DNA of 64,000 bases from the IMG/VR virus record IMGVR_UViG_3300012983_000002; one strand, given 5' to 3'. Source of the DNA: a virus (Duplodnaviria; Heunggongvirae; Uroviricota; Caudoviricetes). Shown in pieces: positions 4,013-53,807 of the stretch. The notes under the pieces were generated by a model that saw only the letters and a program-made list of their open reading frames with translations, did no database searches and was not told where the DNA came from. Both the position numbers and the translations under genes were made by a program. Each line of letters opens with the position of its first letter. The first letter of the stretch is position 1.

Positions 4013-4432
4013 TTATTTTTTATTTTTTCTATCCCAAAGCACCTTTTCTACAATGGGATACTTAATCTTACCTGGTGCGCATAATGCGCACGATGCAAGA
4101 TGATAGGTTTTGTTAGGATAAAAGGTGAATCCTGTTTTGTCCTTTACTGGCTTGATTCGACAAATAACTCGCTTACACATAGCGCATACTACGCGAGCTG
4201 TTTCTTTATCTAACTTCTTACCTTCTGGACAATTTTTGCAGACATCATTGTATGTTTTAAATACTCCGGTGTCTAGCTCTTCTAGATCTGCTACATGAAC
4301 TTTTTTTCCGCAAGCGCAAGTCTCACGTGTATCCGTCAATATTTCCTGCTTCTCCGGAGGAGGTAATGACGCGAGGATGTTAACCATCTCGTGCATCTTT
4401 TCTCCTGTTATACTGTCGAATACGTTATCCAT
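4013..4432 (-). CDS. Cys-rich putative zinc-binding protein
   Basis: CACG, CKNC, CAMC, CALC motifs. Confidence 0.65.
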   Translation of the reverse strand: MDNVFDSITGEKMHEMVNILASLPPPEKQEILTDTRETCACGKKVHVADLEELDTGVFKTYNDVCKNCPEGKKLDKETARVVCAMCKRVICRIKPVKDKTGFTFYPNKTYHLASCALCAPGKIKYPIVEKVLWDRKNKK

Positions 4433-44727: not shown

Positions 44728-45207
44728 TTATTTTTTAATTTCTACTGCAGGTTCGATAAATTTCTTTTTCCACATTACAGGAACTATAGCTTCCCTAGCT
44801 ATATTACTAGGACTTATAGACTCTGATTCTAAAATCTCCTCAACTAAACCAGCACGTGTAAGTTTACCTTCTGTTGTAACAAGTCCGTTTTCAATAGCTT
44901 CTTCAGAGGGATCTTCGATAAGTTTGTCTATCTCGAGGATTATTATGTGACTAGAGTCTTCCTTAAAATAGACAAAATAAGAATTAGTTAACTCGAATAT
45001 CTTTACATCATACTTGTAGTAGTCTTTCCTCGGATGCACACATTTTGCTGAGAAAACACGTTTTCCGAAAATGTGATACTCTTTGTGCGCTTTGGGATCG
45101 TACAGTACATGTTTCTCGTCTCGATCTTCCCAATATCCACCGATGTATAGTATCAGAAGAGGTAGCCCTACTATTGCGATTATTATAGACAGTGTAACTA
45201 TTAGCAT
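44728..45207 (-). CDS. membrane-anchored protein, tandem paralog A
   Basis: N-terminal TM; shares VLYDP..HKEYHIFGK..FSAKC.HP and TNSYFVY with 45217..45693. Confidence 0.8.
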   Translation of the reverse strand: MLIVTLSIIIAIVGLPLLILYIGGYWEDRDEKHVLYDPKAHKEYHIFGKRVFSAKCVHPRKDYYKYDVKIFELTNSYFVYFKEDSSHIIILEIDKLIEDPSEEAIENGLVTTEGKLTRAGLVEEILESESISPSNIAREAIVPVMWKKKFIEPAVEIKK

Positions 45208-45216
45208 ATTGTTGTG

Positions 45217-45693
45217 TTAGTTTTTAATTTCTATTACAGGGTCGATAAACTTCTTCTTACGCATTACAGGAACTACAGCTTCTTTTGCGTCTCTATAAAG
45301 AAAAATAGAGTTAATCAGTCCCTTTCGTGTAAGTTTACCATCTTCATCAATAATACCAGTCTCAATCGCATATTCGGTTGGAGAGTCTACAAATTTATCT
45401 ATTTCTTGTGTTATTACGATACCACTACTATTCTCCTTTGTATAAACGAAATAAGAATTGGTTGTATCGAATATCTTCACCTCAACTTTGTACCAATCTC
45501 TTGCAGGATGCGCACACTTTGCGGAGAAGATAAGTTTTCCGAAAATATGATATTCTTTGTGCTCAGAAGGATCGTACAGCACATACTTACCAGAACTATT
45601 AACCTTACTAATCCACGCTCTTAATGAAAATAGTATCAGGGGAAGTATAAGGCCTGAGAGCGTTAGTATTATCAGTAGTGTACTTAGTGTCAT
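45217..45693 (-). CDS. membrane-anchored protein, tandem paralog B
   Basis: Paralog of 44728..45207. Confidence 0.8.
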   Translation of the reverse strand: MTLSTLLIILTLSGLILPLILFSLRAWISKVNSSGKYVLYDPSEHKEYHIFGKLIFSAKCAHPARDWYKVEVKIFDTTNSYFVYTKENSSGIVITQEIDKFVDSPTEYAIETGIIDEDGKLTRKGLINSIFLYRDAKEAVVPVMRKKKFIDPVIEIKN

Positions 45694-46906: not shown

Positions 46907-46945
46907 AAAAGTATTATAAACTACAAATAACGCGAGCTCAAACGC

Positions 46946-46972
46946 AGTCTAGCCTGGATTCGCGCCAAGACA
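46946..46972 (-). repeat. degenerate copy of the tRNA-Gln 3' half
   Basis: 24/27 identical to 47233..47259. Confidence 0.75.
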
Positions 46973-46980
46973 ACTTATTG

Positions 46981-47178
46981 TCATTGCTTATTTTTGTTTG
47001 GTCTATGGTAGCACTTATCGTATTGCTCCAGTAAATACTTATATCCAGGATCCGGAGGATGCGGTATCTCATACGTCTCTTTTTTACGTGTTGGGTAAAA
47101 AAGGAGGGCCATAAAGACAACAAAGAACAAAGTTCCTGCGGCTGCTGTAGTTAAAATAACAAACTGTATTGATGTCAT
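46981..47178 (-). CDS. small membrane protein (65 aa) between tRNA-Gln and its 3' repeat
   Basis: MTSIQFVILTTAAAGTLFFVVFMALLFYP...; the ORF-track extension to 47367 is antisense-free read-through of two tRNAs and is not credible. Confidence 0.6.
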   Translation of the reverse strand: MTSIQFVILTTAAAGTLFFVVFMALLFYPTRKKETYEIPHPPDPGYKYLLEQYDKCYHRPNKNKQ

Positions 47179-47231
47179 AATCTCAATATTACTTAATACA
47201 AAAAGCGTCCCATCTAACAGACAGGACGCTA

Positions 47232-47302
47232 TAGTCTCGCCTGGATTCGAACCAAGACAGAGGGAATCAAAATCCCTAGTGCTACCTTTACACCACGAGA
47301 CT
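47232..47302 (-). tRNA. tRNA-Gln(TTG)
   Basis: AGGGA-TTTTGAT-TCCCT, TTCGAAT. Confidence 0.9.
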
Positions 47303-47308
47303 AAAAAA

Positions 47309-47382
47309 TACCACGGGTAGGATTCGAACCTACGACCTGCCGCGTATGAAGCGGCCGCTCTAACCAACTAAGCTACCGGGGC
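47309..47382 (-). tRNA. tRNA-Met(CAT), probably elongator
   Basis: CCGC-TTCATAC-GCGG. Confidence 0.88.
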
Positions 47383-47447
47383 ATTTACCTCCCCAAGATA
47401 TACCCAGGGAGGGGGTGCAGAAGTTATCTGCACGGATTACTTAAAGA

Positions 47448-47533
47448 CGGGTTGCTGAGGTGTCGATCCCCAATGGTGTCATCCATCCAACTGTTTTCAA
47501 GACAGTGTTCGTAGCCGTACGAATTAACAACCC
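47448..47533 (-). tRNA. tRNA-Ser(TGA), atypical D and T loops
   Basis: CTGT-CTTGAAA-ACAG, long variable arm, T-loop ATCGACA. Confidence 0.75.
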
Positions 47534-47551
47534 ATTTACTTTTTATATTAC

Positions 47552-47635
47552 TGGGAAGAGGTGGATTCGAACCACCGTAGGTCGTAGACCAGCAGATTTA
47601 CAGTCTGCCCCATTTGACCACTCTGGTATCTTCCC
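47552..47635 (-). tRNA. tRNA-Tyr(GTA)
   Basis: GCAGA-CTGTAAA-TCTGC, class II arm. Confidence 0.92.
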
Positions 47636-47656
47636 TATGTTACGTGACATTATGTA

Positions 47657-47745
47657 AGCCGGCTCAGGGAGTCGAACCCTGCTTAAGGCTATTAACCCGT
47701 TTGCCATATTACAAGTATGGTGCCTAACCGATCGGCTTAGCCGGC
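47657..47745 (-). tRNA. tRNA-Thr(TGT) with an unusually long variable region
   Basis: CCATA-CTTGTAA-TATGG, 22-nt variable region, CAGGG-TTCGACT-CCCTG. Confidence 0.75.
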
Positions 47746-47751
47746 GTTAAC

Positions 47752-47823
47752 TCTGGCACACTCGAATCGAACGAGCCTCGTCCTCTGCCCAAAAGAGGTG
47801 CATACCCAGCCTGCCCGCGCCAG
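47752..47823 (-). tRNA. tRNA-Pro(TGG)
   Basis: CCTCT-TTTGGGC-AGAGG. Confidence 0.82.
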
Positions 47824-47844
47824 CTTATTACTATACTATATAGA

Positions 47845-47917
47845 TGGAGCAGAAGAGACTCGAACTCTCAACCTTCTGAATGCAAATCAGACGCTCTGCC
47901 AATTGAGCTACAACCCC
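47845..47917 (-). tRNA. tRNA-Ala(TGC)
   Basis: TCTGA-TTTGCAT-TCAGA. Confidence 0.92.
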
Positions 47918-47930
47918 GTTATGTAGCAAT

Positions 47931-47959
47931 AATATACGCTATATAAAAAATTAAAGCAA
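47931..47959 (-). promoter_or_regulatory. sigma70-type promoter of the Ala-Pro-Thr-Tyr-Ser-Met-Gln tRNA run
   Basis: TTGCTT-N17-TATATT with an AT-rich upstream tract, about 13 nt before tRNA-Ala. Confidence 0.55.
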
Positions 47960-47992
47960 CTATATTTTTGCTACATGTAATAAAAAATTTAT

Positions 47993-48514
47993 TTAATAAA
48001 GTTTAGCTGTAATCTTACCGTTACTGTTAAGCATGCAAGCGTACTTAGTACTATCCATGAACCGAGCCATACTATAAACGTAGTGTTCGATATTGTACGC
48101 CAGCTCTCTAACCTCTCTATTATACCCGTTCTTCAACATTTCATTAAGGGTGTCGATCATTTTAGGAAGATGTTCCATACATTCCTTTAAAGCTAAAAGA
48201 TCGTTGCGTTCGCAGTTAAGTGTGTGACTACGTGCCTTGCTAAACCACTTTTCTGTGTATGGCCTATCTTCCTCAGGCGCCAGAGTAAAAGATGACGTCT
48301 GTTCGTGAAATAACTTATGAGCTGCTCTAATATACTTTGCTCTATCTTCTGAGGTTTGTACAAAAGAAGGCATACCGCCGATATACCCACCAGGACCTTC
48401 CTTGGTTAAGAATGCTCTATGAACCTCGACACCATTTACTATTACTCTGAAATCTACTCTATCTTCACTAGGCTTACTGCTACGTTTCAGTGTATATTTT
48501 GTTTCTGTGTTCAT
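47993..48514 (-). CDS. hypothetical protein
   Basis: 173 aa ORF. Confidence 0.7.
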   Translation of the reverse strand: MNTETKYTLKRSSKPSEDRVDFRVIVNGVEVHRAFLTKEGPGGYIGGMPSFVQTSEDRAKYIRAAHKLFHEQTSSFTLAPEEDRPYTEKWFSKARSHTLNCERNDLLALKECMEHLPKMIDTLNEMLKNGYNREVRELAYNIEHYVYSMARFMDSTKYACMLNSNGKITAKLY

Positions 48515-48651
48515 ATTATTTGTCGAATGTAATGATTACTTTCCAATATTAAGGGCCATCTCAAGAAGAGCAACTCCGTCGTTTAGTAATGCTGTAAGTT
48601 TTCGAATGTCTATAAGTGTAGCTTTATCGATATAAGGAACAATCGGTAAGT

Positions 48652-48882
48652 TCATTTTTTTAAAATTTTATATTTAATACCATTGTCAGTATATTCTGCT
48701 GTAAACGGCGTATAGCACATACCACATAAAAACGAATCTTCTAGGTCGTCTTTAGATTTAACGATGCGAGCTTTCATTAACCGTTCGCACCCACACGAAG
48801 GACAAGAGACAACCTTACCAGCTTCGCGAGCAGAATTCAGCTTTCTGTAATACTCTTTTATTTTCTGTTGTTCTTTGGTCAT
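48652..48882 (-). CDS. small zinc-ribbon protein
   Basis: CPSCGC...CGMC. Confidence 0.6.
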   Translation of the reverse strand: MTKEQQKIKEYYRKLNSAREAGKVVSCPSCGCERLMKARIVKSKDDLEDSFLCGMCYTPFTAEYTDNGIKYKILKK

Positions 48883-48927
48883 AGTGTTTAGAAACTATAT
48901 TTTTTCTACCTGTAATAAAAAATTTAT

Positions 48928-49113
48928 TTAGCTTCTTGCTAGCAGGATTAAGATTAACGCGCCTGTAGCTAAAAAGAGACCACACCCTATGAATGCGATA
49001 AGTCCTATAGTACCAATGATATCTATATAACGTTTATGCATTTCAAATTCCTTATCAGCCTCTTGCAATAATGCAATCGCATCTTTTAACTTTTCTTTTT
49101 CTTCTTCGGTCAT
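48928..49113 (-). CDS. small membrane protein
   Basis: C-terminal TM. Confidence 0.55.
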   Translation of the reverse strand: MTEEEKEKLKDAIALLQEADKEFEMHKRYIDIIGTIGLIAFIGCGLFLATGALILILLARS

Positions 49114-49361
49114 TTGTCGAATGTAATGATTACTTCTTTATCGATAGGTATTTCCACATGCCTTTCACCGTTAATGAATTTAATAACTTTATCTGAACTT
49201 ATCTTTGGAGCAGTGGAACATTTATAAATCTTTCCATCATCCACCTTTATATTACATTCCAGGATTCTGTCCTTACCCCAAATCGCCCATGATACAAGAA
49301 AACCTAATATAAATAATCCTATACATGTTACTATACCCCCTAAAACATCAGCAGTATCCAT
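49110..49361 (-). CDS. small membrane-anchored protein
   Basis: N-terminal TM. Confidence 0.6.
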   Translation of the reverse strand: MDTADVLGGIVTCIGLFILGFLVSWAIWGKDRILECNIKVDDGKIYKCSTAPKISSDKVIKFINGERHVEIPIDKEVIITFDK

Positions 49362-49380
49362 ATTAAGTACAGGTTTAATA

Positions 49381-49620
49381 TTAATAATTATTCTTTATTG
49401 TGTATTTTCCATTGCTAGTATATTTGGTACCAGCTACGTCAAAATACAATATTCCGTCTTTTTCTTCGTAGTAATTAGAGTAGTACGTATCTGAAAAAAG
49501 ACCGTTATCCACTTCAATAGTATAGCGGTACGTCTGTTCTTTTTTATATTTATTGTCGCAAGCCGAACAACCAAAGAAAAAGACACCAAACAAAAGTAGT
49601 AATTCTAAGAGGCAACCCAT
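49381..49620 (-). CDS. small putative lipoprotein
   Basis: Hydrophobic N-terminus followed by FGCSAC. Confidence 0.5.
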   Translation of the reverse strand: MGCLLELLLLFGVFFFGCSACDNKYKKEQTYRYTIEVDNGLFSDTYYSNYYEEKDGILYFDVAGTKYTSNGKYTIKNNY

Positions 49621-49721
49621 ATAAGTTAATGTGTGATTTTATATTCTTTTGTGTAAATAAAACCACCGCCCAAGCAGATGCCTGGGCGGTGACTATCTTT
49701 AATACTTATCAATAAAAACAA

Positions 49722-49806
49722 CGGAGAGTACTGGAGTCGAACCAGTTCGACCTTTCGGTCGGCTACGGTTTAGCAAACCGACGCATTACCGTTCTGCCAA
49801 CCCTCC
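49722..49806 (-). tRNA. tRNA-Ser(GCT)
   Basis: CGGT-TTGCTAA-ACCG, long variable arm. Confidence 0.9.
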
Positions 49807-49835
49807 GTACAGGAAGTCAAGGACTCGAACCCTGA
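49807..49835 (-). repeat. exact 29-bp copy of the tRNA-Trp 3' half (att-like)
   Basis: gtacaggaagtcaaggactcgaaccctga identical to 50090..50118. Confidence 0.92.
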
Positions 49836-49846
49836 AAATTATCAAT

Positions 49847-50074
49847 TCAATTCTGTAAAGTTGTCTTTTTACAGTTTATTCTATTCGTGAGCTCGTTATA
49901 ATCAAAAGTAAGTTTCATCTTTTTAGGACACTTCTTTGAAGTGAACACAAAATCGATCGTTACTTCACTCTTATCATCATCGATCTCGTTCTTCTCAATG
50001 ATGAGTTTACCTTCTTTTATATCTTCTTGTAAAATGTCAGTTACAAGCCTCATATAGTCTTTAAGAGTTTTCAT
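49847..50074 (-). CDS. small hypothetical protein inside the tRNA-Trp duplication
   Basis: 75 aa ORF filling the space between the repeats. Confidence 0.7.
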   Translation of the reverse strand: MKTLKDYMRLVTDILQEDIKEGKLIIEKNEIDDDKSEVTIDFVFTSKKCPKKMKLTFDYNELTNRINCKKTTLQN

Positions 50075-50092
50075 AAGCTTTCTAATAGAGTA

Positions 50093-50164
50093 CAGGAAGT
50101 CAAGGACTCGAACCCTGATGACCGGTTTTGGAGACCGGGATCTTAACCATTAGATGAACTTCCT
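50093..50164 (-). tRNA. tRNA-Trp(CCA)
   Basis: CCGGT-CTCCAAA-ACCGG. Confidence 0.92.
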
Positions 50165-50178
50165 ACGATGTTAAACAA

Positions 50179-50267
50179 CACGCCAGGTAGGACTCGAACC
50201 TACAAAGACATTTCCAATTACCATAGTTTTACGTCTCGTGCTTAGAAGGCACGTTGGTTACTGGCGC
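50179..50267 (-). tRNA. non-canonical tRNA-Arg(TCT): no D-arm, 33-nt variable arm
   Basis: GCGCCAG/CTGGCGT acceptor, CGTGC-CTTCTAA-GCACG, GTAGG-TTCGAGT-CCTAC. Confidence 0.7.
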
Positions 50268-50340
50268 ATTAGCATTATAATACTCTATATTATTGCCGAA
50301 AAAATTATTACTAATTCTCTACACAAAGTAAAATATAATT

Positions 50341-50853
50341 TTAAGCGTAGTACAGAATATTTTTTTCTTCCTCTGATAACTTAATGATTTTGGCTTTCTT
50401 ATCTTTGTGTGAAATTTTATTAGCTCCACGATAATGCTCAGTCTGACCGTGACAATTAGGACATAAAATTTGTAAATTATTCCAGGCATTATCATGATGA
50501 TTACCATTTACATGATGTAACTCTAACGGAATTTCTTTACCTCTCCATTCGGATAAACCGCAACATTCGCAGCGTTTTTCTTTTAGGCCAAATTTAAATA
50601 AATAGCCTTTAAGCTTATAGGCGGTAATGTAGTGTTTATTTTGAAACACTAGTTCTAGTTTTTCTTTAGTAACCGTTCTATGACTCTTCTTGCTAGTACC
50701 TCTACCTCCCTGATTGGGCAAAAAACAGTTATATTTTTTAGCAAGACGAGCATATGCATTGTACGATATGCCCATTACGCGCGCCGCTCCTGTGATAGTT
50801 TTTGTAGAATTATATGCGGCCTCTATCTCTTCTTTTGAAAAATTATAACTCAT
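50341..50853 (-). CDS. free-standing HNH homing endonuclease
   Basis: CECCG...LELHHVNGNHHDNAWNNLQILCPNCH plus N-terminal HTH; start moved to ATG 50853 (MSYNF). Confidence 0.88.
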   Translation of the reverse strand: MSYNFSKEEIEAAYNSTKTITGAARVMGISYNAYARLAKKYNCFLPNQGGRGTSKKSHRTVTKEKLELVFQNKHYITAYKLKGYLFKFGLKEKRCECCGLSEWRGKEIPLELHHVNGNHHDNAWNNLQILCPNCHGQTEHYRGANKISHKDKKAKIIKLSEEEKNILYYA

Positions 50854-50913
50854 AATCGATAGACACTTTATAATATAATATTTAGTGTTTGTCAATTATG
50901 AGTTATAATTTTT
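50838..50913 (-). promoter_or_regulatory. 19-bp inverted repeat covering the HNH start codon, with a TTGACA-N17-TATAAA promoter in its loop
   Basis: Arms 50838..50856 and 50895..50913; -35 at 50890..50895, -10 at 50867..50872. Confidence 0.75.
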
Positions 50914-50914
50914 A

Positions 50915-51254
50915 TAGCACGGACGGGACTCGAACCCGTACAGTCTAACGACCGGGAGATTTTCTTACTACTCTCAGTTTCCTGAGCCATTTATGTTGTA
51001 GTCTGGACTATATCATCATCCTAAAAGGATGTCACGTGCATAGTCTCTGAACCTTCCTCATTTTACAGAGGCTTGGCTGCGAATTACCCAATCTCCAGAT
51101 TTTTAAGAGCGTTCGCATTTATCGTTTCCGATTGTGCTTTAGCATCTGAAGCTCTAAGGGCTTCCTCGCAATTCGCGCGATTCATTCTATATGTTACCAT
51201 ATAGACGCTCAGTATTGGTAAGTCTCCTGTGTCTACCAATTCCACCACCGTGCC
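50915..51254 (-). tRNA. tRNA-Leu(TAA) interrupted by a group I intron
   Basis: Exons 51220..51254 and 50915..50963 join to give GGAGA-CTTAAAA-TCTCC. Confidence 0.92.
50964..51219 (-). ncRNA. ORF-less group I intron in the tRNA-Leu anticodon (256 nt)
   Basis: P1 CUU/GAG; GCGAATTGCGAGGAAG, AATTCGCAGCCAAGC, GGTTCAGAGACTA, GATATAGTCCAG; terminal G. Confidence 0.92.
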
Positions 51255-51265
51255 TTATTGCTGGA

Positions 51266-51336
51266 TAGGAGCACTGGGAATCGAACCCAGAATGAACGGT
51301 TAAAAGCCGCATATTATACCATTTAATTATACTCCC
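51266..51336 (-). tRNA. tRNA-Lys(TTT)
   Basis: GCGG-CTTTTAA-CCGT. Confidence 0.88.
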
Positions 51337-51432
51337 AAAGTTGTGTTGTGCGGTTATTTTACAACTACATATTTTACAATGCTAGCTAAAAATAAAATTT
51401 TATACACGAAATAAAAATAATTTTTATACAAA

Positions 51433-51467
51433 CAGGCTGGGGAGATGTATTTAATCTCCCCAGCCTG
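51433..51467 (-). terminator. intrinsic terminator
   Basis: 14-bp perfect stem caggctggggagat/atctccccagcctg. Confidence 0.75.
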
Positions 51468-51618
51468 ATGATCAACTCCAAAAAATGAACAAGACCGTTA
51501 TTGTGTCCGTCGTCACCACGCAGAACATCCTTTTTACGCTACCAACAATTATCAGACCTGGGAGGATGTGACCCTGTGTCGATAACTGCCAACACCATCC
51601 GAGCCAACCCGAATGGAA

Positions 51619-51690
51619 TAGGGGCGGTGGGATTCGAACCCACACCCAAACGATTATGAGTCGTCCGCTCCACCTTCGAGCTGCACCCCC
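51619..51690 (-). tRNA. tRNA-Ile2(CAT), lysidine type
   Basis: CGA-CTCATAA-TCG anticodon arm as in ileX; a Met identity cannot be excluded. Confidence 0.75.
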
Positions 51691-51696
51691 ATTAAA

Positions 51697-51778
51697 TACC
51701 ACCAGTCGGACTCGAACCGACACGCTGTTACGCAGAAGAACCTAAATCTACCGGGTCTACCAATTTCCCCATGGTGGC
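51697..51778 (-). tRNA. tRNA-Leu(TAG)
   Basis: Loop TT-TAG-GT, class II arm. Confidence 0.88.
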
Positions 51779-51893
51779 ATTTACGATCGCAGATAATAAC
51801 TACGCTCATTTATATATAGCATATACTACGTTATTTTTTCAGCATCGCAACACTAAACTTTTACTATGACACATTTATTTTTATAATACCCCT

Positions 51894-52241
51894 ATGCTTC
51901 TACAAAGCGAGATAGCCGAGGAATACAGTGTAACAGATACACAAGTACTTACACCAAACGGTTGGAGAAAAGTAAATAAGGTATATAAAACAATACCCCT
52001 GGAAACAGTGCGTATTGTTACTTCTAATTGTGAACTTATATGTTCGCTCCATCACCTTATTAAGACTCCTTACGGATGGGTACACGCCTATACGCTTTGT
52101 CAGGGAGATATTGTACTTACAGAGAACGGTTCTGAGGCGGTACTAATCGCTGAAGAAACAGGAGAAATGGAGGAGCTATACGATATAACGGTAGATGATC
52201 CTAGTGGTGAGTTTTACTCTAATGGTATACTGTCGCACAAC
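51894..52241 (+). mobile_element. split intein, IntC (116 aa)
   Basis: VLTPNGW, block B ICSLHH, block F LYDITV, block G SHN followed by Ser+1. Confidence 0.9.
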
Positions 52242-53807
52242 TCTACAACGTTTGCGGCACGTCAGTTAATTCTATCGCATCTTCTTCCAAACTATAAAAG
52301 TCTGTATGTATGCCCTCAGCACGATCAATTAAAGACTTACGCCAGGCGTCTTGCTGAAATGGAAGCAGCTTTTCGTTTCGATAATGGTAAGCAGAACCTG
52401 TACAACAAGGTATACGAAGACGGATCTGCTATCGACCTTAATTACTGCTTAACTACCGCTAATGCTGTTCGTGGTAAGTCTGTAATTGAGGTACTGCTAG
52501 ATGAGGCTCAGGGTATTAATCCTGATATTGTACCAGAACTTCTTTATGTGCAGACTACGGCGCAATATCCTTCCACTATCTTCGCCGGCACAGCCCTGTC
52601 CATCGATACTCTCCTGGAAGCTAAATGGCAGGCATCCTCTATGGGAATGTGGCACATACGAGCCATGGACGATGTTCACTGGTTAAACATGTATGATAAG
52701 GATACGCTATCGAAAGTGTGTGATAATCCTCAAGGTCCTACATGTCCTTATACTGGTAAATTACTAGATGTTACTCGTGGTTGCTATGTGCATGCTAATC
52801 AGAAGGCCATGGCTATTAACGAGATTGGTATTCACGTACCGCAATGCATTATCCCTGATCTGGCGTACAATCCTATCCAGTGGGGTAAGATATATAAAAA
52901 AATACAAGACGACGATTTTAATAAAGTGTTACAAGAATGTTTCGGAATTGCAGTTGCTGAGGGTAGTCGAGAAATCACTGAACAAGACCTTCAGCGCTTA
53001 TGTGTCTTAACAGATAATCACGAAGAGATTAAGCAGAAATGCAGGAACGGCTATTATCGCCTTATTGTTTCTGGGTGCGACTGGGGTGGCTCCGACTACA
53101 ACCAGGCTATTCAGACTAAGACGTCATATACCGTGCATTGCATTATCGGTGTAGCTCCTGATGATGTTATAGATATTCTTTACTACAAGCGTTATAGCGG
53201 TATGGATTACCGAGATATTGCCGAGGAGATTGCTAATACACATAAAGCCTATAATGGGCACGTAGTAGCTTCGGACTTCGGTGTAGGTCTCGCATACAAT
53301 ACTGAACTGCGAAATCGTATTCCTTATGACCGTCACTTCATTATGAATTACGTAGGACAGGCAGCAGCTCCCCTGGCTACTCCTAAAGGACAGCACATGA
53401 TTAATCAGCTTGCTCTTAATCGTACGGAAGCTCTTACTAATGTGTTTAAGGATGTTAAGGATCCTCATCTAAAAATAAGAGCTGGTAGTTGGGGTTACAC
53501 TTCCTCCTATCTTCTGGATTGGCTCAACATGTATCGTGTGCCTGTTGATATGCCTAGCGGTCAGACTGCATTCAAATATATTCGAAGCGCTACTAAGGCA
53601 GATGATGCTCTGCACGCATTTACCTTTGCCTATGTGCTTGCTAAGTTCTTCCTAGGAGTACCCCTGGTCAATGACTTAGCTTTGGAGCAGAGGTTGAGAT
53701 CTGTGCTATATGGTCCAGGATCTGCTGGGGTTATAGCTCCCAGAAGCTCTCCTGAACTTGATCGATTACTCAGAGGAGGAGATCCTAATTACGTAATTTC
53801 TCTTTAA
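51894..53807 (+). CDS. terL: split intein C-part (116 aa) plus terminase large subunit C-extein (521 aa)
   Basis: LYDITV...FYSNGILSHN/STT; then SLYVCP, VLLDEAQ (Walker B), FAGTA, nuclease SGCDWGG, SDFGVG, DDALHA. Confidence 0.92.
   Translation: MLLQSEIAEEYSVTDTQVLTPNGWRKVNKVYKTIPLETVRIVTSNCELICSLHHLIKTPYGWVHAYTLCQGDIVLTENGSEAVLIAEETGEMEELYDITVDDPSGEFYSNGILSHNSTTFAARQLILSHLLPNYKSLYVCPQHDQLKTYARRLAEMEAAFRFDNGKQNLYNKVYEDGSAIDLNYCLTTANAVRGKSVIEVLLDEAQGINPDIVPELLYVQTTAQYPSTIFAGTALSIDTLLEAKWQASSMGMWHIRAMDDVHWLNMYDKDTLSKVCDNPQGPTCPYTGKLLDVTRGCYVHANQKAMAINEIGIHVPQCIIPDLAYNPIQWGKIYKKIQDDDFNKVLQECFGIAVAEGSREITEQDLQRLCVLTDNHEEIKQKCRNGYYRLIVSGCDWGGSDYNQAIQTKTSYTVHCIIGVAPDDVIDILYYKRYSGMDYRDIAEEIANTHKAYNGHVVASDFGVGLAYNTELRNRIPYDRHFIMNYVGQAAAPLATPKGQHMINQLALNRTEALTNVFKDVKDPHLKIRAGSWGYTSSYLLDWLNMYRVPVDMPSGQTAFKYIRSATKADDALHAFTFAYVLAKFFLGVPLVNDLALEQRLRSVLYGPGSAGVIAPRSSPELDRLLRGGDPNYVISL

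Follow-up and report, generated by a model that had tools for sequence, protein, structure and literature searches.

Repeated tRNA 3′ parts around single-gene inserts in a gut jumbo phage as probable scars of unequal recombination between relatives

Results

Two phage tRNA genes are followed by a small gene and a displaced copy of their own 3′ part

The stretch of DNA analysed here (the window, 64,000 nucleotides) belongs to the 196.5-kb, CheckV-complete genome of a lytic-type gut jumbo phage, in which tRNA genes were called with ARAGORN and Rfam and protein-coding genes were annotated with Pfam and PHROG. At the tRNA-Trp site, the intact tRNA-Trp(cca) gene (50093–50165; ARAGORN, and 54.4 bits in Rfam) is followed on the minus strand by ORF75 (49847–50074), the cargo of a 283-bp insert, by a displaced tRNA-Trp T arm with acceptor 3′ strand and trailer (49807–49835), and by tRNA-Ser(gct) (49721–49806; ARAGORN and Rfam); a terminator-like hairpin (49661–49694) lies beyond tRNA-Ser. 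The displaced segment is identical (29/29, spacing 283) to positions 50090–50118, which comprise the 3′ part of the intact tRNA-Trp and 3 nt of its trailer (TAC), and it directly adjoins tRNA-Ser at its first base; tRNA-Ser was originally next to tRNA-Trp on the right (compare positions 1819–1980 of the relative L024).

At the tRNA-Gln site, where all features likewise lie on the minus strand, the intact tRNA-Gln(ttg) gene (47232–47303; ARAGORN and Rfam) precedes a 287-bp insert that starts with a terminator-like hairpin and T run (47204–47230; kept in the relatives L003, L015 and L024) and carries ORF65 (46981–47178) as its cargo. The tRNA-Gln 3′ part (47233–47259) recurs on the far side of this 65-aa ORF as a displaced T arm and acceptor 3′ strand (46946–46972; 24/27, spacing 287), the T loop of which is mutated from TT to CG. 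Four nucleotides past this fragment starts a sigma-70-like promoter, judged by its sequence motif (46913–46941, TTGAGC-17-TATAAT), of a 370-aa gene (P370, 45794–46906), itself an alternative cargo of the tRNA-Gln/P158 framework. The right end of the ORF65 insert (46973–47002, repeat B) is a remnant of a P158-like leader and first four codons, as indicated by its match to the leader and start of P158 (45682–45711, repeat B′; 27/30 over 30 nt), which is its only match in the window; in L003, the homologous stretch is the genuine start of the next gene. The insert ends 12 nt into a P158-like gene, i.e. it has no donor-independent end, and the second repeat pair, B/B′, brackets the neighbouring 370-aa gene, such that the repeats are interleaved in the order A-ORF65-B-A′-P370-B′.

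At both sites the tRNA repeat comprises the final 1–3 nt of the variable loop, the T arm and the acceptor 3′ strand. A comparison of all tRNAs with the whole 196.5-kb genome (blastn-short) recovered only the Trp and Gln fragments as tRNA pieces outside tRNA genes, and a second match to either repeat was obtained in none of the 100 dinucleotide shuffles made for each site.

ORF75 is a small conserved protein, with 96 homologues at 53–100% identity and many invariant alignment columns. Its AF2 model (pLDDT 74) comprises a helix and a four-stranded sheet; no significant match to this model was obtained in the PDB, and the protein has no Pfam or PHROG hit. ORF65, which is represented by only 3 protein clusters among 5.8 billion sequences, is predicted to be a small single-pass membrane protein.

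Empty sites and parental layouts are found in relatives

The relatives compared (designated by L-numbers) are all metagenome contigs; for L015 and L016 there is one short assembly each, and L024 (JGI) and L026 (ENA) are independent assemblies that are 100% identical. In L024/L026 the tRNA-Trp site is empty, reading tRNA-Trp-TAT-tRNA-Ser without a fragment, and in L016 tRNA-Gln is directly followed by the 370-aa gene with an equivalent promoter. Because these exact empty sites are present in relatives, both ~285-bp units are true indels at tRNA junctions that were once contiguous, the empty alleles being either ancestral or secondary losses. The preliminary description of this locus had given the repeats correctly (Trp 29/29 at an offset of 283, Gln 24/27 at an offset of 287, one copy abutting tRNA-Ser), and the empty-site alleles that it suggested looking for do occur at both sites. 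Its view of ~285-bp single-gene units at tRNAs holds in that both are true insertions into tRNA junctions, but the ORF65 unit is without a defined end.

The Gln fragment also represents the original upstream flank of the 370-aa gene promoter, a position occupied by an intact tRNA-Gln in L016. The 370-aa gene has only two homologues, in L015 and L016, and L003 lacks it. The layouts of both parents occur among the relatives, namely Gln-ORF65-P158-like gene in L003 and Gln-P370-P158-like gene in L016. In L015, the T stem of the Gln fragment (CTAGG/CCTGG) equals that of the intact tRNA-Gln of L003, whereas the intact L015 gene has CTTGG/CCAGG; by this comparison fragment and intact gene in L015 represent different tRNA-Gln alleles, and the fragment switches from one allele to the other just 5 nt from the junction.

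The displaced 3′ fragments differ in their state of decay: 29/29 positions are retained for Trp in the window and 26/29 in L018, 24/27 for Gln in the window and 23/27 in L015. The 26/29 Trp copy occupies the equivalent junction in L018–L022, and the L024 Gln fragment has derived changes in common with the window fragment. In L003 most of the Trp fragment is deleted and only a remnant is left, with ORF75 and tRNA-Ser retained. L008 and L023 carry the tRNA-Trp and ORF75 unit without any tRNA fragment; in the otherwise unrelated L008 array this 328-nt unit is 90.5% identical. Trp-linked ORF75 alleles are 86–96% identical to each other, compared with only 84% for the allele of L010, which is closer genome-wise and lacks tRNA-Trp, and ORF75 homologues elsewhere occupy tRNA-free contexts without a tRNA-like site. 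The Trp-site trailers also differ, with TAC after the intact tRNA, as in the L008/L023 unit, and TAT after the displaced copy, as in the empty allele.

The tRNA/ORFan region is mosaic

A third repeat-flanked module (935 bp, minus strand, 47955–48930, family D5 repeat) contains P76, a 39-aa ORF and P173 (genes at 47993–48882). It is flanked by a 41-nt motif (47955–47995 and 48890–48930, 93% identical) that is promoter-like by sequence and overlaps a 16-bp inverted repeat; in L003 the module is missing and a single motif copy is present. Each site has flanking repeats of its own kind (Trp, Gln, 41-nt promoter-like motif), and the cassettes have no attC-like element in common.

Across the window, L003, L018, L024 and L010, gene content between tRNA-Ser and tRNA-Ala is combinatorial, and their terminase proteins are 93–98% identical despite the differing ORFan content. 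The mosaic boundary can be abrupt: identity between L024 and the window is 99.4% as far as tRNA-Trp, beyond which the two are ~92% identical or non-homologous. Within the variable region, L024 also contains a frameshifted stub of the start of a 95-aa gene, and two different gene starts share the 23 nt immediately before them, without a mismatch. On the basis of these sequence comparisons, the tRNA/ORFan region adjoining the terminase gene is a recombination patchwork, resembling PeSL-type shuffling and 3′-end displacement.

Recombinase and endonuclease genes

In the complete 196.5-kb genome, the Pfam profiles PF00589 (Phage_integrase), PF00239 (Resolvase) and PF07508 (Recombinase) gave no hit at E ≤ 1, control genomes being positive, and PF00665 (rve) and PF01797 (Y1_Tnp) likewise gave no hit in the complete genome, control genomes scoring with both. 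A free-standing HNH endonuclease gene (50341–50895, minus strand; Pfam HNH; PHROG HNH, 3.8e-28) resides in the tRNA cluster and is shared with L003 and L024 but not with L010. In L021 and L022 a different endonuclease-like gene (Vsr/PD-(D/E)XK-like) is inserted between tRNA-Arg and tRNA-Trp.

Discussion

Taken together, these results make it probable that the tRNA 3′ repeats are scars of unequal, largely illegitimate recombination between co-infecting relatives. Such relatives would share a framework of tRNA genes, promoters and terminators, with differing small genes in between. At the Gln site, one parent would have contributed tRNA-Gln, the terminator, ORF65 and a P158-like gene, and the other tRNA-Gln, the 370-aa gene and a P158-like gene; a single crossover between a point 12 nt inside the P158-like gene of the first parent and the variable-loop/T-stem boundary of tRNA-Gln in the second would place ORF65 and the 370-aa gene in tandem and double the framework between the breakpoints (27 nt of tRNA-Gln and 30 nt of P158 leader and start). 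The joint (AAGT|TGTC) has 0–1 nt of microhomology, the tRNA array as far as tRNA-Gln being the homologous anchor. With only ~8–11 nt between the ORF75 stop codon and the right end of its insert, too few for tracing a donor, the Trp event is explained on the model of the Gln site. The tRNA-Trp and ORF75 unit, which is also found in an unrelated array, would have been joined likewise into a resident Trp-TAT-Ser junction, leaving the resident T arm and acceptor strand ahead of tRNA-Ser. Once formed, the direct repeats would permit exact removal of an insert, or its recovery from a relative, through homologous recombination, which is how we propose that empty and filled alleles arise; the genome also encodes a RecA-like ORF.

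Two aspects fit this explanation less easily. The allele switch in L015, 5 nt from the junction, needs either a conversion patch or a second event at nearly the same point. Moreover, both tRNA breakpoints fall within ~2 nt of the variable-loop/T-stem boundary and the inserts are nearly equal in size (283 and 287 bp), neither of which is predicted by random illegitimate joints; some targeting of the tRNA breakpoints is thereby hinted at, and this counts against an explanation by random joints. The breaks may have arisen when a homing endonuclease residing in the cluster, with the HNH enzyme as a candidate, cut both strands of tRNA genes in the region of the T arm. In a stronger form of this idea, which we regard as rather unlikely, the tRNA genes would be programmed landing pads: the cluster endonuclease would cut them at the variable-loop/T-stem boundary, just 5′ of the T arm, and nuclease-less single-gene units lying beside the matching tRNA in a co-infecting phage would, with similarly low probability, be copied in by one-ended repair. 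If so, the tRNA would be regenerated and the old T arm displaced, and tRNA genes would be recurrent sites of targeted insertion for the trans-homing of cargo. The duplications do start 4 and 6 nt before GGTTCGA, the HNH gene is in the cluster and the other endonuclease-like gene in the L021/L022 tRNA array, and the L015 fragment, derived from another tRNA-Gln allele, nevertheless has the identical junction. Furthermore, the recognition site of SegB spans exactly the T arm and the remainder of the tRNA as far as its 3′ end (PMC2330249). Against this stand the small number of events (two, with putative cut sites), the insert end inside a neighbouring gene, which leaves the cargo unit undefined, the lack of alternative cargo between a tRNA and its fragment in the relatives compared, and the non-tRNA repeats of the third module; selection for intact tRNAs, promoters and leaders could equally position the joints.

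The preliminary description had instead proposed an integron-like system of minimal gene cassettes mobilised in trans. Under such a model a tyrosine or serine recombinase would excise the units as ~285-bp circles and insert them into tRNA 3′ halves. This is now very improbable, even though direct repeats of tRNA 3′ parts match the typical extent of tRNA att sites, empty sites exist and the two units are similar in size. The recombinase that was to be sought elsewhere is not represented among the Pfam recombinase or transposase families searched in the complete phage genome, although one encoded by the host is conceivable, and the different cargo to be looked for at the same tRNAs was not found between a tRNA and its own fragment in the relatives compared. 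The ORF65 unit stops inside the donor's next gene, L008 and L023 have the tRNA-Trp and ORF75 unit without a fragment, ORF75 homologues occur where there is no tRNA-like site, and a third insert in the region has non-tRNA flanking repeats. The interleaved A-ORF65-B-A′-P370-B′ order, in which a repeat brackets the 370-aa gene, is predicted by one unequal crossover and not by att recombination. One old tandem tRNA duplication had been named as the explanation that would undo the cassette reading. In this view the fragments would be what is left of duplicated tRNA-Trp and tRNA-Gln genes with later overwritten 5′ halves; tRNA arrays do duplicate, and the fragments are on the same strand as their source genes and just downstream of them. 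We nevertheless find such an origin scarcely credible in view of the exact empty alleles in close relatives, the differing tRNA-Gln alleles in L015, the unlike Trp trailers (TAC versus TAT) and the tRNA-free contexts of ORF75, and it leaves the donor-gene remnant and the interleaved repeats unexplained.

Retention of the T-arm hairpins for a function as RNA would add to a recombination origin rather than replace it. The hairpins could serve as a processing or stability signal at the 3′ end of the ORF message, as a tRNA-Ser leader or as upstream context of the 370-aa gene promoter, options to which we give, like the proposal as a whole, little credence. All five T-stem substitutions in the fragments preserve pairing (C-G to U-G and G-U to A-U in L018; U-A to U-G in L024; U-A to A-U in L015), the Trp fragment is the immediate 5′ leader of tRNA-Ser, and the Gln fragment lies 4 nt before a −35 box. 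However, three of these changes are transitions, which are often pairing-neutral by chance, the L015 pair can be put down to another tRNA allele, decay of T-loop and acceptor bases is unconstrained, and L003 keeps ORF75 and tRNA-Ser with most of the Trp fragment gone.

An origin by unequal recombination would place the locus beside several known systems. The icd/icdC pair at e14 is an example of 3′-end displacement. A further example of such homology-facilitated illegitimate recombination is provided by the orphan immunity arrays of Vibrio cholerae T6SS loci (PMC5361080). Common to these and the present case are an insert anchored by homology at one end and joined illegitimately at the other (at the Gln site, with a Trp layout that is alike), and a resident anchor-gene 3′ end that is moved downstream as a decaying fragment; here, however, a tRNA gene of a phage array acts as the anchor, and co-infecting phages would be the partners in the exchange. 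Tycheposons, tyrosine-integrase elements at tRNA genes with partial-tRNA flanks (bioRxiv 10.1101/2020.12.28.424599), similarly have an insert downstream of an intact tRNA, then a partial tRNA 3′ copy, with older fragments decaying. They reside in a cell chromosome, in contrast to the lytic-type jumbo phage analysed here, whose genome is without an integrase and whose inserts are ~285 bp with one gene, one end lying inside a donor gene. Integrons differ as well, since there is neither an IntI integrase nor a shared attC-like element here and the repeats vary from site to site.

T4 SegB, a free-standing homing endonuclease of the tRNA cluster, has a 27-bp recognition site and cuts many tRNA genes (PMC2330249), and SegB breaks together with UvsX/UvsY recombination at microhomology rearrange the tRNA region (PMC13096335). 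The present locus resembles T4/T6 SegB in having an endonuclease gene among phage tRNA genes and in that the 27-bp site corresponds to the segment duplicated here; through its breaks, SegB causes the tRNA region to be preferentially inherited and rearranged (PMC2330249, PMC13096335). SegB, however, is a GIY-YIG enzyme, whereas the enzyme here is an HNH protein, and the reported outcomes of SegB activity are gene conversion and tandem amplification, not cargo genes with tRNA-fragment flanks.

In T4-type phages, PeSL-flanked ORFans are shuffled in hyperplastic regions (Arbiol et al. 2010, PMC2839356; Comeau et al. 2014, PMC4122927). Of the three repeat pairs described here, two differ from PeSLs in being tRNA 3′ parts made by the event itself and not pre-existing promoter-terminator units, and the Gln-site data favour one unequal crossover of two genomes over excision and reinsertion. 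The likeness lies in single ORFan modules that are bounded by short, conserved direct repeats and occupy a variable part of a large lytic phage genome, in close relatives with an empty site and one repeat copy, and in the integrase-free setting; the 41-nt promoter-like repeat around P76–P173 would be a direct analogue.

Repeated tRNA 3' parts bracket two small genes in a phage tRNA array

The window corresponds to the minus strand of nucleotides 78918–142917 in a 196.5-kb IMG/VR record that is rated complete by CheckV. No close cultured phage was found: the region has no megablast match among the INPHARED phages, and the terminase protein is ∼23% identical to those of Vibrio phage D69 and Salmonella phage Arash. 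Relatives are almost absent from IMG/VR as well, being limited to one 5.2-kb near-identical fragment and one ORF75 pseudogene context, and four DNA patterns for tRNA 3' parts and junctions gave no match there. Downstream of the terminase gene, the minus strand carries a tRNA array (47231–51779) with 13 tRNAs detected by ARAGORN, an odd tRNA found by Rfam only (50179–50267), a group I intron (50983–51229, Rfam) and a free-standing HNH gene (50341–50895), and small genes of unknown function are scattered through it. The N-terminus of the terminase large-subunit ORF (51894–52260, first ∼120 residues) gives weak, sub-threshold matches to Hint/intein-splicing domains, ending ..SHNS, and may contain a mini-intein or its remnant.

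The two repeats on which the preliminary description was based were recovered with the lengths and spacings claimed for them. At the Trp site, 50090–50118 is identical to 49807–49835 (29/29, spacing 283), and at the Gln site 47233–47259 matches 46946–46972 at 24 of 27 positions (spacing 287); in shuffled windows, neither repeat found a second match at ≤3 mismatches. Both start 1–3 nt ahead of the T stem and span, on the coding strand, the T arm and the 3' strand of the acceptor; the Trp repeat additionally takes in the 3-nt trailer TAC and abuts the first base of tRNA-Ser(gct). ORF75 (49847–50074) lies between the Trp copies and ORF65 (46981–47178) between the Gln copies. A search of every tRNA against the whole genome (blastn-short) revealed no other tRNA fragment outside tRNA genes.

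In relatives, the only further candidate was one doubtful orphan stretch (L008:4240-4273), located directly after tRNA-Phe in the unrelated 23-tRNA array of a metagenome contig. It resembles a T arm plus acceptor (gcgtcgcgatgtcggttcgagtccggttcacgc) and could represent either a minihelix or one more displaced tRNA 3' part; close to it lies what may be an odd tRNA (∼4350–4430), and a full tRNA(CAT) at ∼232–305 was apparently missed by ARAGORN. At the Trp site, ATTGATAA follows both ORF75 and tRNA-Ser, forming a further repeat pair that was too short to be counted.

Parental layouts and a donor-gene remnant at the tRNA-Gln site

Comparison with related metagenome contigs revealed alternative alleles of the Gln site. 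Contigs L015 and L024 are filled like the window and share the junction AATGACAATAAGT/TGTCT. In L016, an intact tRNA-Gln is directly followed by the promoter and start of the 370-aa gene, without ORF65 and without the fragment, and in L003 the order is tRNA-Gln, hairpin and ORF65, with a P158/P159-like gene immediately after ORF65; the fragment and the 370-aa gene are both missing there. The last 30 nt of the ORF65 insert (46973–47002) match the leader and first four codons of P158 (45682–45711) at 27 of 30 positions, a match unique in the window, and the homologous stretch of L003 is where the following gene really starts. The locus thus has the interleaved order A (tRNA-Gln 3' part), ORF65, B (P158-like leader and start), A' (Gln fragment), 370-aa gene, B', P158. 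Relative to the two parental layouts, both of which are seen (L003 and L016), the sole new joint is B/A' (AAGT/TGTC), with essentially no microhomology.

Only two homologues of the 370-aa gene were found, and the one in L016 (94-1211) appears as a pair of overlapping ORF calls (169 and 209 aa), owing to a frameshift or a sequencing error. P158 and P159 are tandem paralogues in the window (44728–45693), and a hydrophobic segment is present at the N-terminus of each; a single copy of this type, nearer P159, is found in L003 and L010, and the extra copy came in with the 370-aa gene.

Filled and empty alleles at the tRNA-Trp site

We identified 96 homologues of ORF75 (53–100% identity), all from gut metagenomes, on contigs reaching 255 kb in length. 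The site is filled at the same junction (GATAATTT/T..) in L018–L022, five contigs of separate sample origin, with a fragment matching at 26 of 29 positions and a TAT end, and in L003, whose terminase is 97.8% identical, the fragment is shrunk to ctcttgTAT. The empty allele, consisting of tRNA-Trp, TAT and tRNA-Ser, is carried by L024 (JGI), which we found in a metagenome scan for the predicted empty junction, and by L026 (ENA), which surfaced independently and is 100% identical to L024 across 4428 nt. Assembly collapse is unlikely to have generated this junction: it is present in two assemblies made independently, the strain can be told from the window at other positions, and a repeat of just 29 bp is involved. 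Identity between L024 and the window is 99.4% from tRNA-Leu to tRNA-Trp; past tRNA-Ser the two are only ∼92% identical or non-homologous, which places a mosaic boundary exactly at the Trp site. Empty-site alleles, which the preliminary description had named as the main thing to look for, are present at both sites (L024/L026 for Trp, L016 for Gln). Each insert is a real gene insertion at a tRNA gene, and each is polymorphic. The empty sites may be ancestral or may be secondary losses.

ORF75 also occurs next to tRNA-Trp in a different genomic setting. Contigs L008/L009 and L023 have a different tRNA array, and the DNA that L008 shares with the window is limited to tRNA-Met, tRNA-Gln and a 328-nt unit comprising tRNA-Trp, its trailer and ORF75, which is 90.5% identical and whose match stops 3 nt short of the window's fragment. 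Trp-linked ORF75 alleles are 86–96% identical to each other; L010, despite its 93% identical terminase, carries an ORF75 only 84% identical and has no tRNA-Trp. In more distant relatives, ORF75 is found among consecutive small genes, and there is no tRNA nearer than 6 kb. As judged from sequence, the Trp unit moves together with its tRNA.

The ORF75 homologue at L025:2494-2633 (IMGVR_UViG_3300012979_002166), with a GTG start, a large internal deletion and a tRNA-free context, is apparently a pseudogene. Another homologue, 59% identical, is encoded by L030 (JAFQOW010000041.1, 238.7 kb), which was deposited within a goat-colon Lachnospiraceae MAG; its size is in line with that of the jumbo-phage relatives, and it probably represents a phage genome that was placed in a bacterial bin. 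The assignment is possibly a hint to the host. In L021 (106-948) and L022 (112-969), a gene of 280–285 aa with HTH and MTES_1575/DUF559 (Vsr-like endonuclease) domains is located exactly between the odd tRNA-Arg(tct) and tRNA-Trp, which in the window are separated by a 13-nt spacer only; it is probably another free-standing homing endonuclease of the tRNA cluster.

Further scars in the region

More scars of this type occur in the region. A 935-bp module (P76, a 39-aa ORF and P173) sits between two copies of a 41-nt promoter-like motif, of which L003 has one copy and no module. An identical 23–24-nt stretch (AAGTAATCATTACATTCGACAAAT, minus strand) is present at 48518–48541 and 49112–49135, ahead of the P173 and P61 starts, as well as in L018 and L024; in one of its two places it is the 3' end of P83, and the duplicate is another recombination scar. 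Between the terminator after tRNA-Ser and the P76 start, L024 retains a frameshifted stub (2035-2062), an illegitimate-deletion scar in which ∼25 nt remain from the beginning of a 95-aa gene; L018–L020 have this gene intact. From tRNA-Ser to tRNA-Ala, gene content varies combinatorially among the window, L003, L018, L024 and L010.

Origin of the inserts

The preliminary description had proposed integrase-less cassettes mobilised in trans, in an integron-like system with tRNAs as landing pads. Our results do not support such a system: the complete genome contains no Phage_integrase, Resolvase, large serine Recombinase, rve or Y1 transposase domain (control genomes scored), the ORF65 insert has no defined end, alleles are mixed, and scars not involving tRNAs lie alongside. 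Self-mobilisation of the cargo genes was likewise discarded as an explanation. Neither ORF75 nor ORF65 is nuclease- or recombinase-like, and the ORF75 model, in which a helix packs against an antiparallel sheet of four strands (pLDDT 74), has no significant structural match in the PDB and does not resemble a GIY-YIG or other nuclease fold. A tandem tRNA duplication as the source of the fragments was rejected: close relatives carry exact empty alleles, ORF75 occurs in tRNA-free contexts, the interleaved repeats and the donor-gene remnant would be left unexplained, and alleles differ. In L015, the T stem of the fragment (CTAGG/CCTGG) is that of the intact tRNA-Gln of L003, and the intact L015 gene has CTTGG/CCAGG; at the Trp site, the trailer after the intact tRNA is TAC, as in the Trp+ORF75 unit of L008/L023, and that on the displaced copy is TAT, as in the empty allele. 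Fragment and intact copy can thus derive from different alleles, which points to recombination between genomes and not to duplication within one.

The inserts are best explained by recombination scarring in a hyperplastic tRNA/ORFan region, with the Gln site showing both parents and the product. We infer that co-infecting relatives underwent unequal and mostly illegitimate recombination, after which inserts were lost precisely through the repeats or re-gained by homology. At the Gln site, a single unequal crossover between parents sharing the tRNA-Gln to P158 framework, with different genes in between, would yield the interleaved repeats. In the simplest history of the Trp site, a Trp+ORF75 unit would have been joined into a resident Trp-TAT-Ser junction, the left join being homologous, inside tRNA-Trp, and the right join illegitimate, at the variable loop of the resident gene; the right-hand join is read by likeness to the Gln site, because the right flank of ORF75 (∼8–11 nt) is too short to trace.

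What triggered these events is a matter of speculation. Initiation by a nuclease of the tRNA cluster is conceivable, and we consider it rather improbable. A cut at the boundary of variable loop and T stem of the resident tRNA gene would start the process, its left end would invade the donor tRNA gene so that the T arm and downstream gene are copied, and the right end would be captured illegitimately, a series of steps that would account exactly for the layout seen. In favor of it, the resident breakpoints almost coincide in tRNA position, 4 and 6 nt before GGTTCGA, and candidate nucleases are at hand in the HNH gene of the window's tRNA cluster and the HTH plus Vsr/MTES_1575-like gene of L021/L022. 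A precedent is SegB of T4, a homing endonuclease from the tRNA cluster with a 27-bp recognition sequence reaching from the T arm to the tRNA 3' end, which cuts many tRNA genes (PMC2330249) and whose breaks, together with UvsX/UvsY recombination at microhomology, rearrange the tRNA region (PMC13096335); the genome encodes a RecA-like protein. If nuclease initiation were true, a tRNA-targeting homing endonuclease would set the breakpoints, and selfish nucleases would be directly tied to gene gain in phage tRNA arrays.

Among described systems, PeSL-mediated modular shuffling in T4-type phages comes closest: it operates without an integrase on ORFans flanked by short repeated motifs, with the empty site seen in close relatives (PMC2839356). 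In their layout, the displaced 3' fragments match homology-facilitated illegitimate recombination and 3'-end displacement (e.g. PMC5361080). Flanking partial tRNAs are shared with tRNA-gene integrase elements including tycheposons (bioRxiv 10.1101/2020.12.28.424599), from which the locus differs in having neither an integrase nor defined ends. Conserved tRNA genes can be a shared framework for gene exchange between diverged phages, and a duplicated tRNA 3' end in a phage should therefore not be read as pointing to an integrase. The locus constitutes an unusually complete natural record of large phages gaining small genes of unknown function, in which parental alleles, the two-gene recombinant and later decay or loss of the scar are all legible in metagenome relatives.

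Cargo genes and their expression

ORF75, ORF65, the 370-aa gene and the neighbouring small genes have no match in Pfam or PHROGs. Given its many invariant alignment columns, ORF75 is clearly a genuine gene; ORF65, which is restricted to this small clade, looks like a single-pass membrane protein when read from its sequence. A terminator-like hairpin (47204–47230) opens the ORF65 insert, and the Gln fragment lies 4 nt ahead of the predicted promoter of the 370-aa gene (TTGAGC-17-TATAAT). There is no terminator ahead of ORF75, which is probably co-transcribed with the tRNAs.

An RNA role of the retained T-arm hairpins would be a minor addition to their recombination origin. All five T-stem substitutions in the fragments preserve pairing. 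This retention lacks significance, given that transitions make up several of them and that a different tRNA allele can account for one pair.

In relatives, a TGTATAAT-type box lies ∼6 nt ahead of the ATG of many small genes (L004:5985-6000, L006:5985-6000 and L012:5985-6000; e.g. tataattgactt-ATG; compare window 46913–46918), and the motif is repeated at the next gene downstream. This pattern suggests extended -10 promoters giving leaderless or near-leaderless messages, one per small gene.
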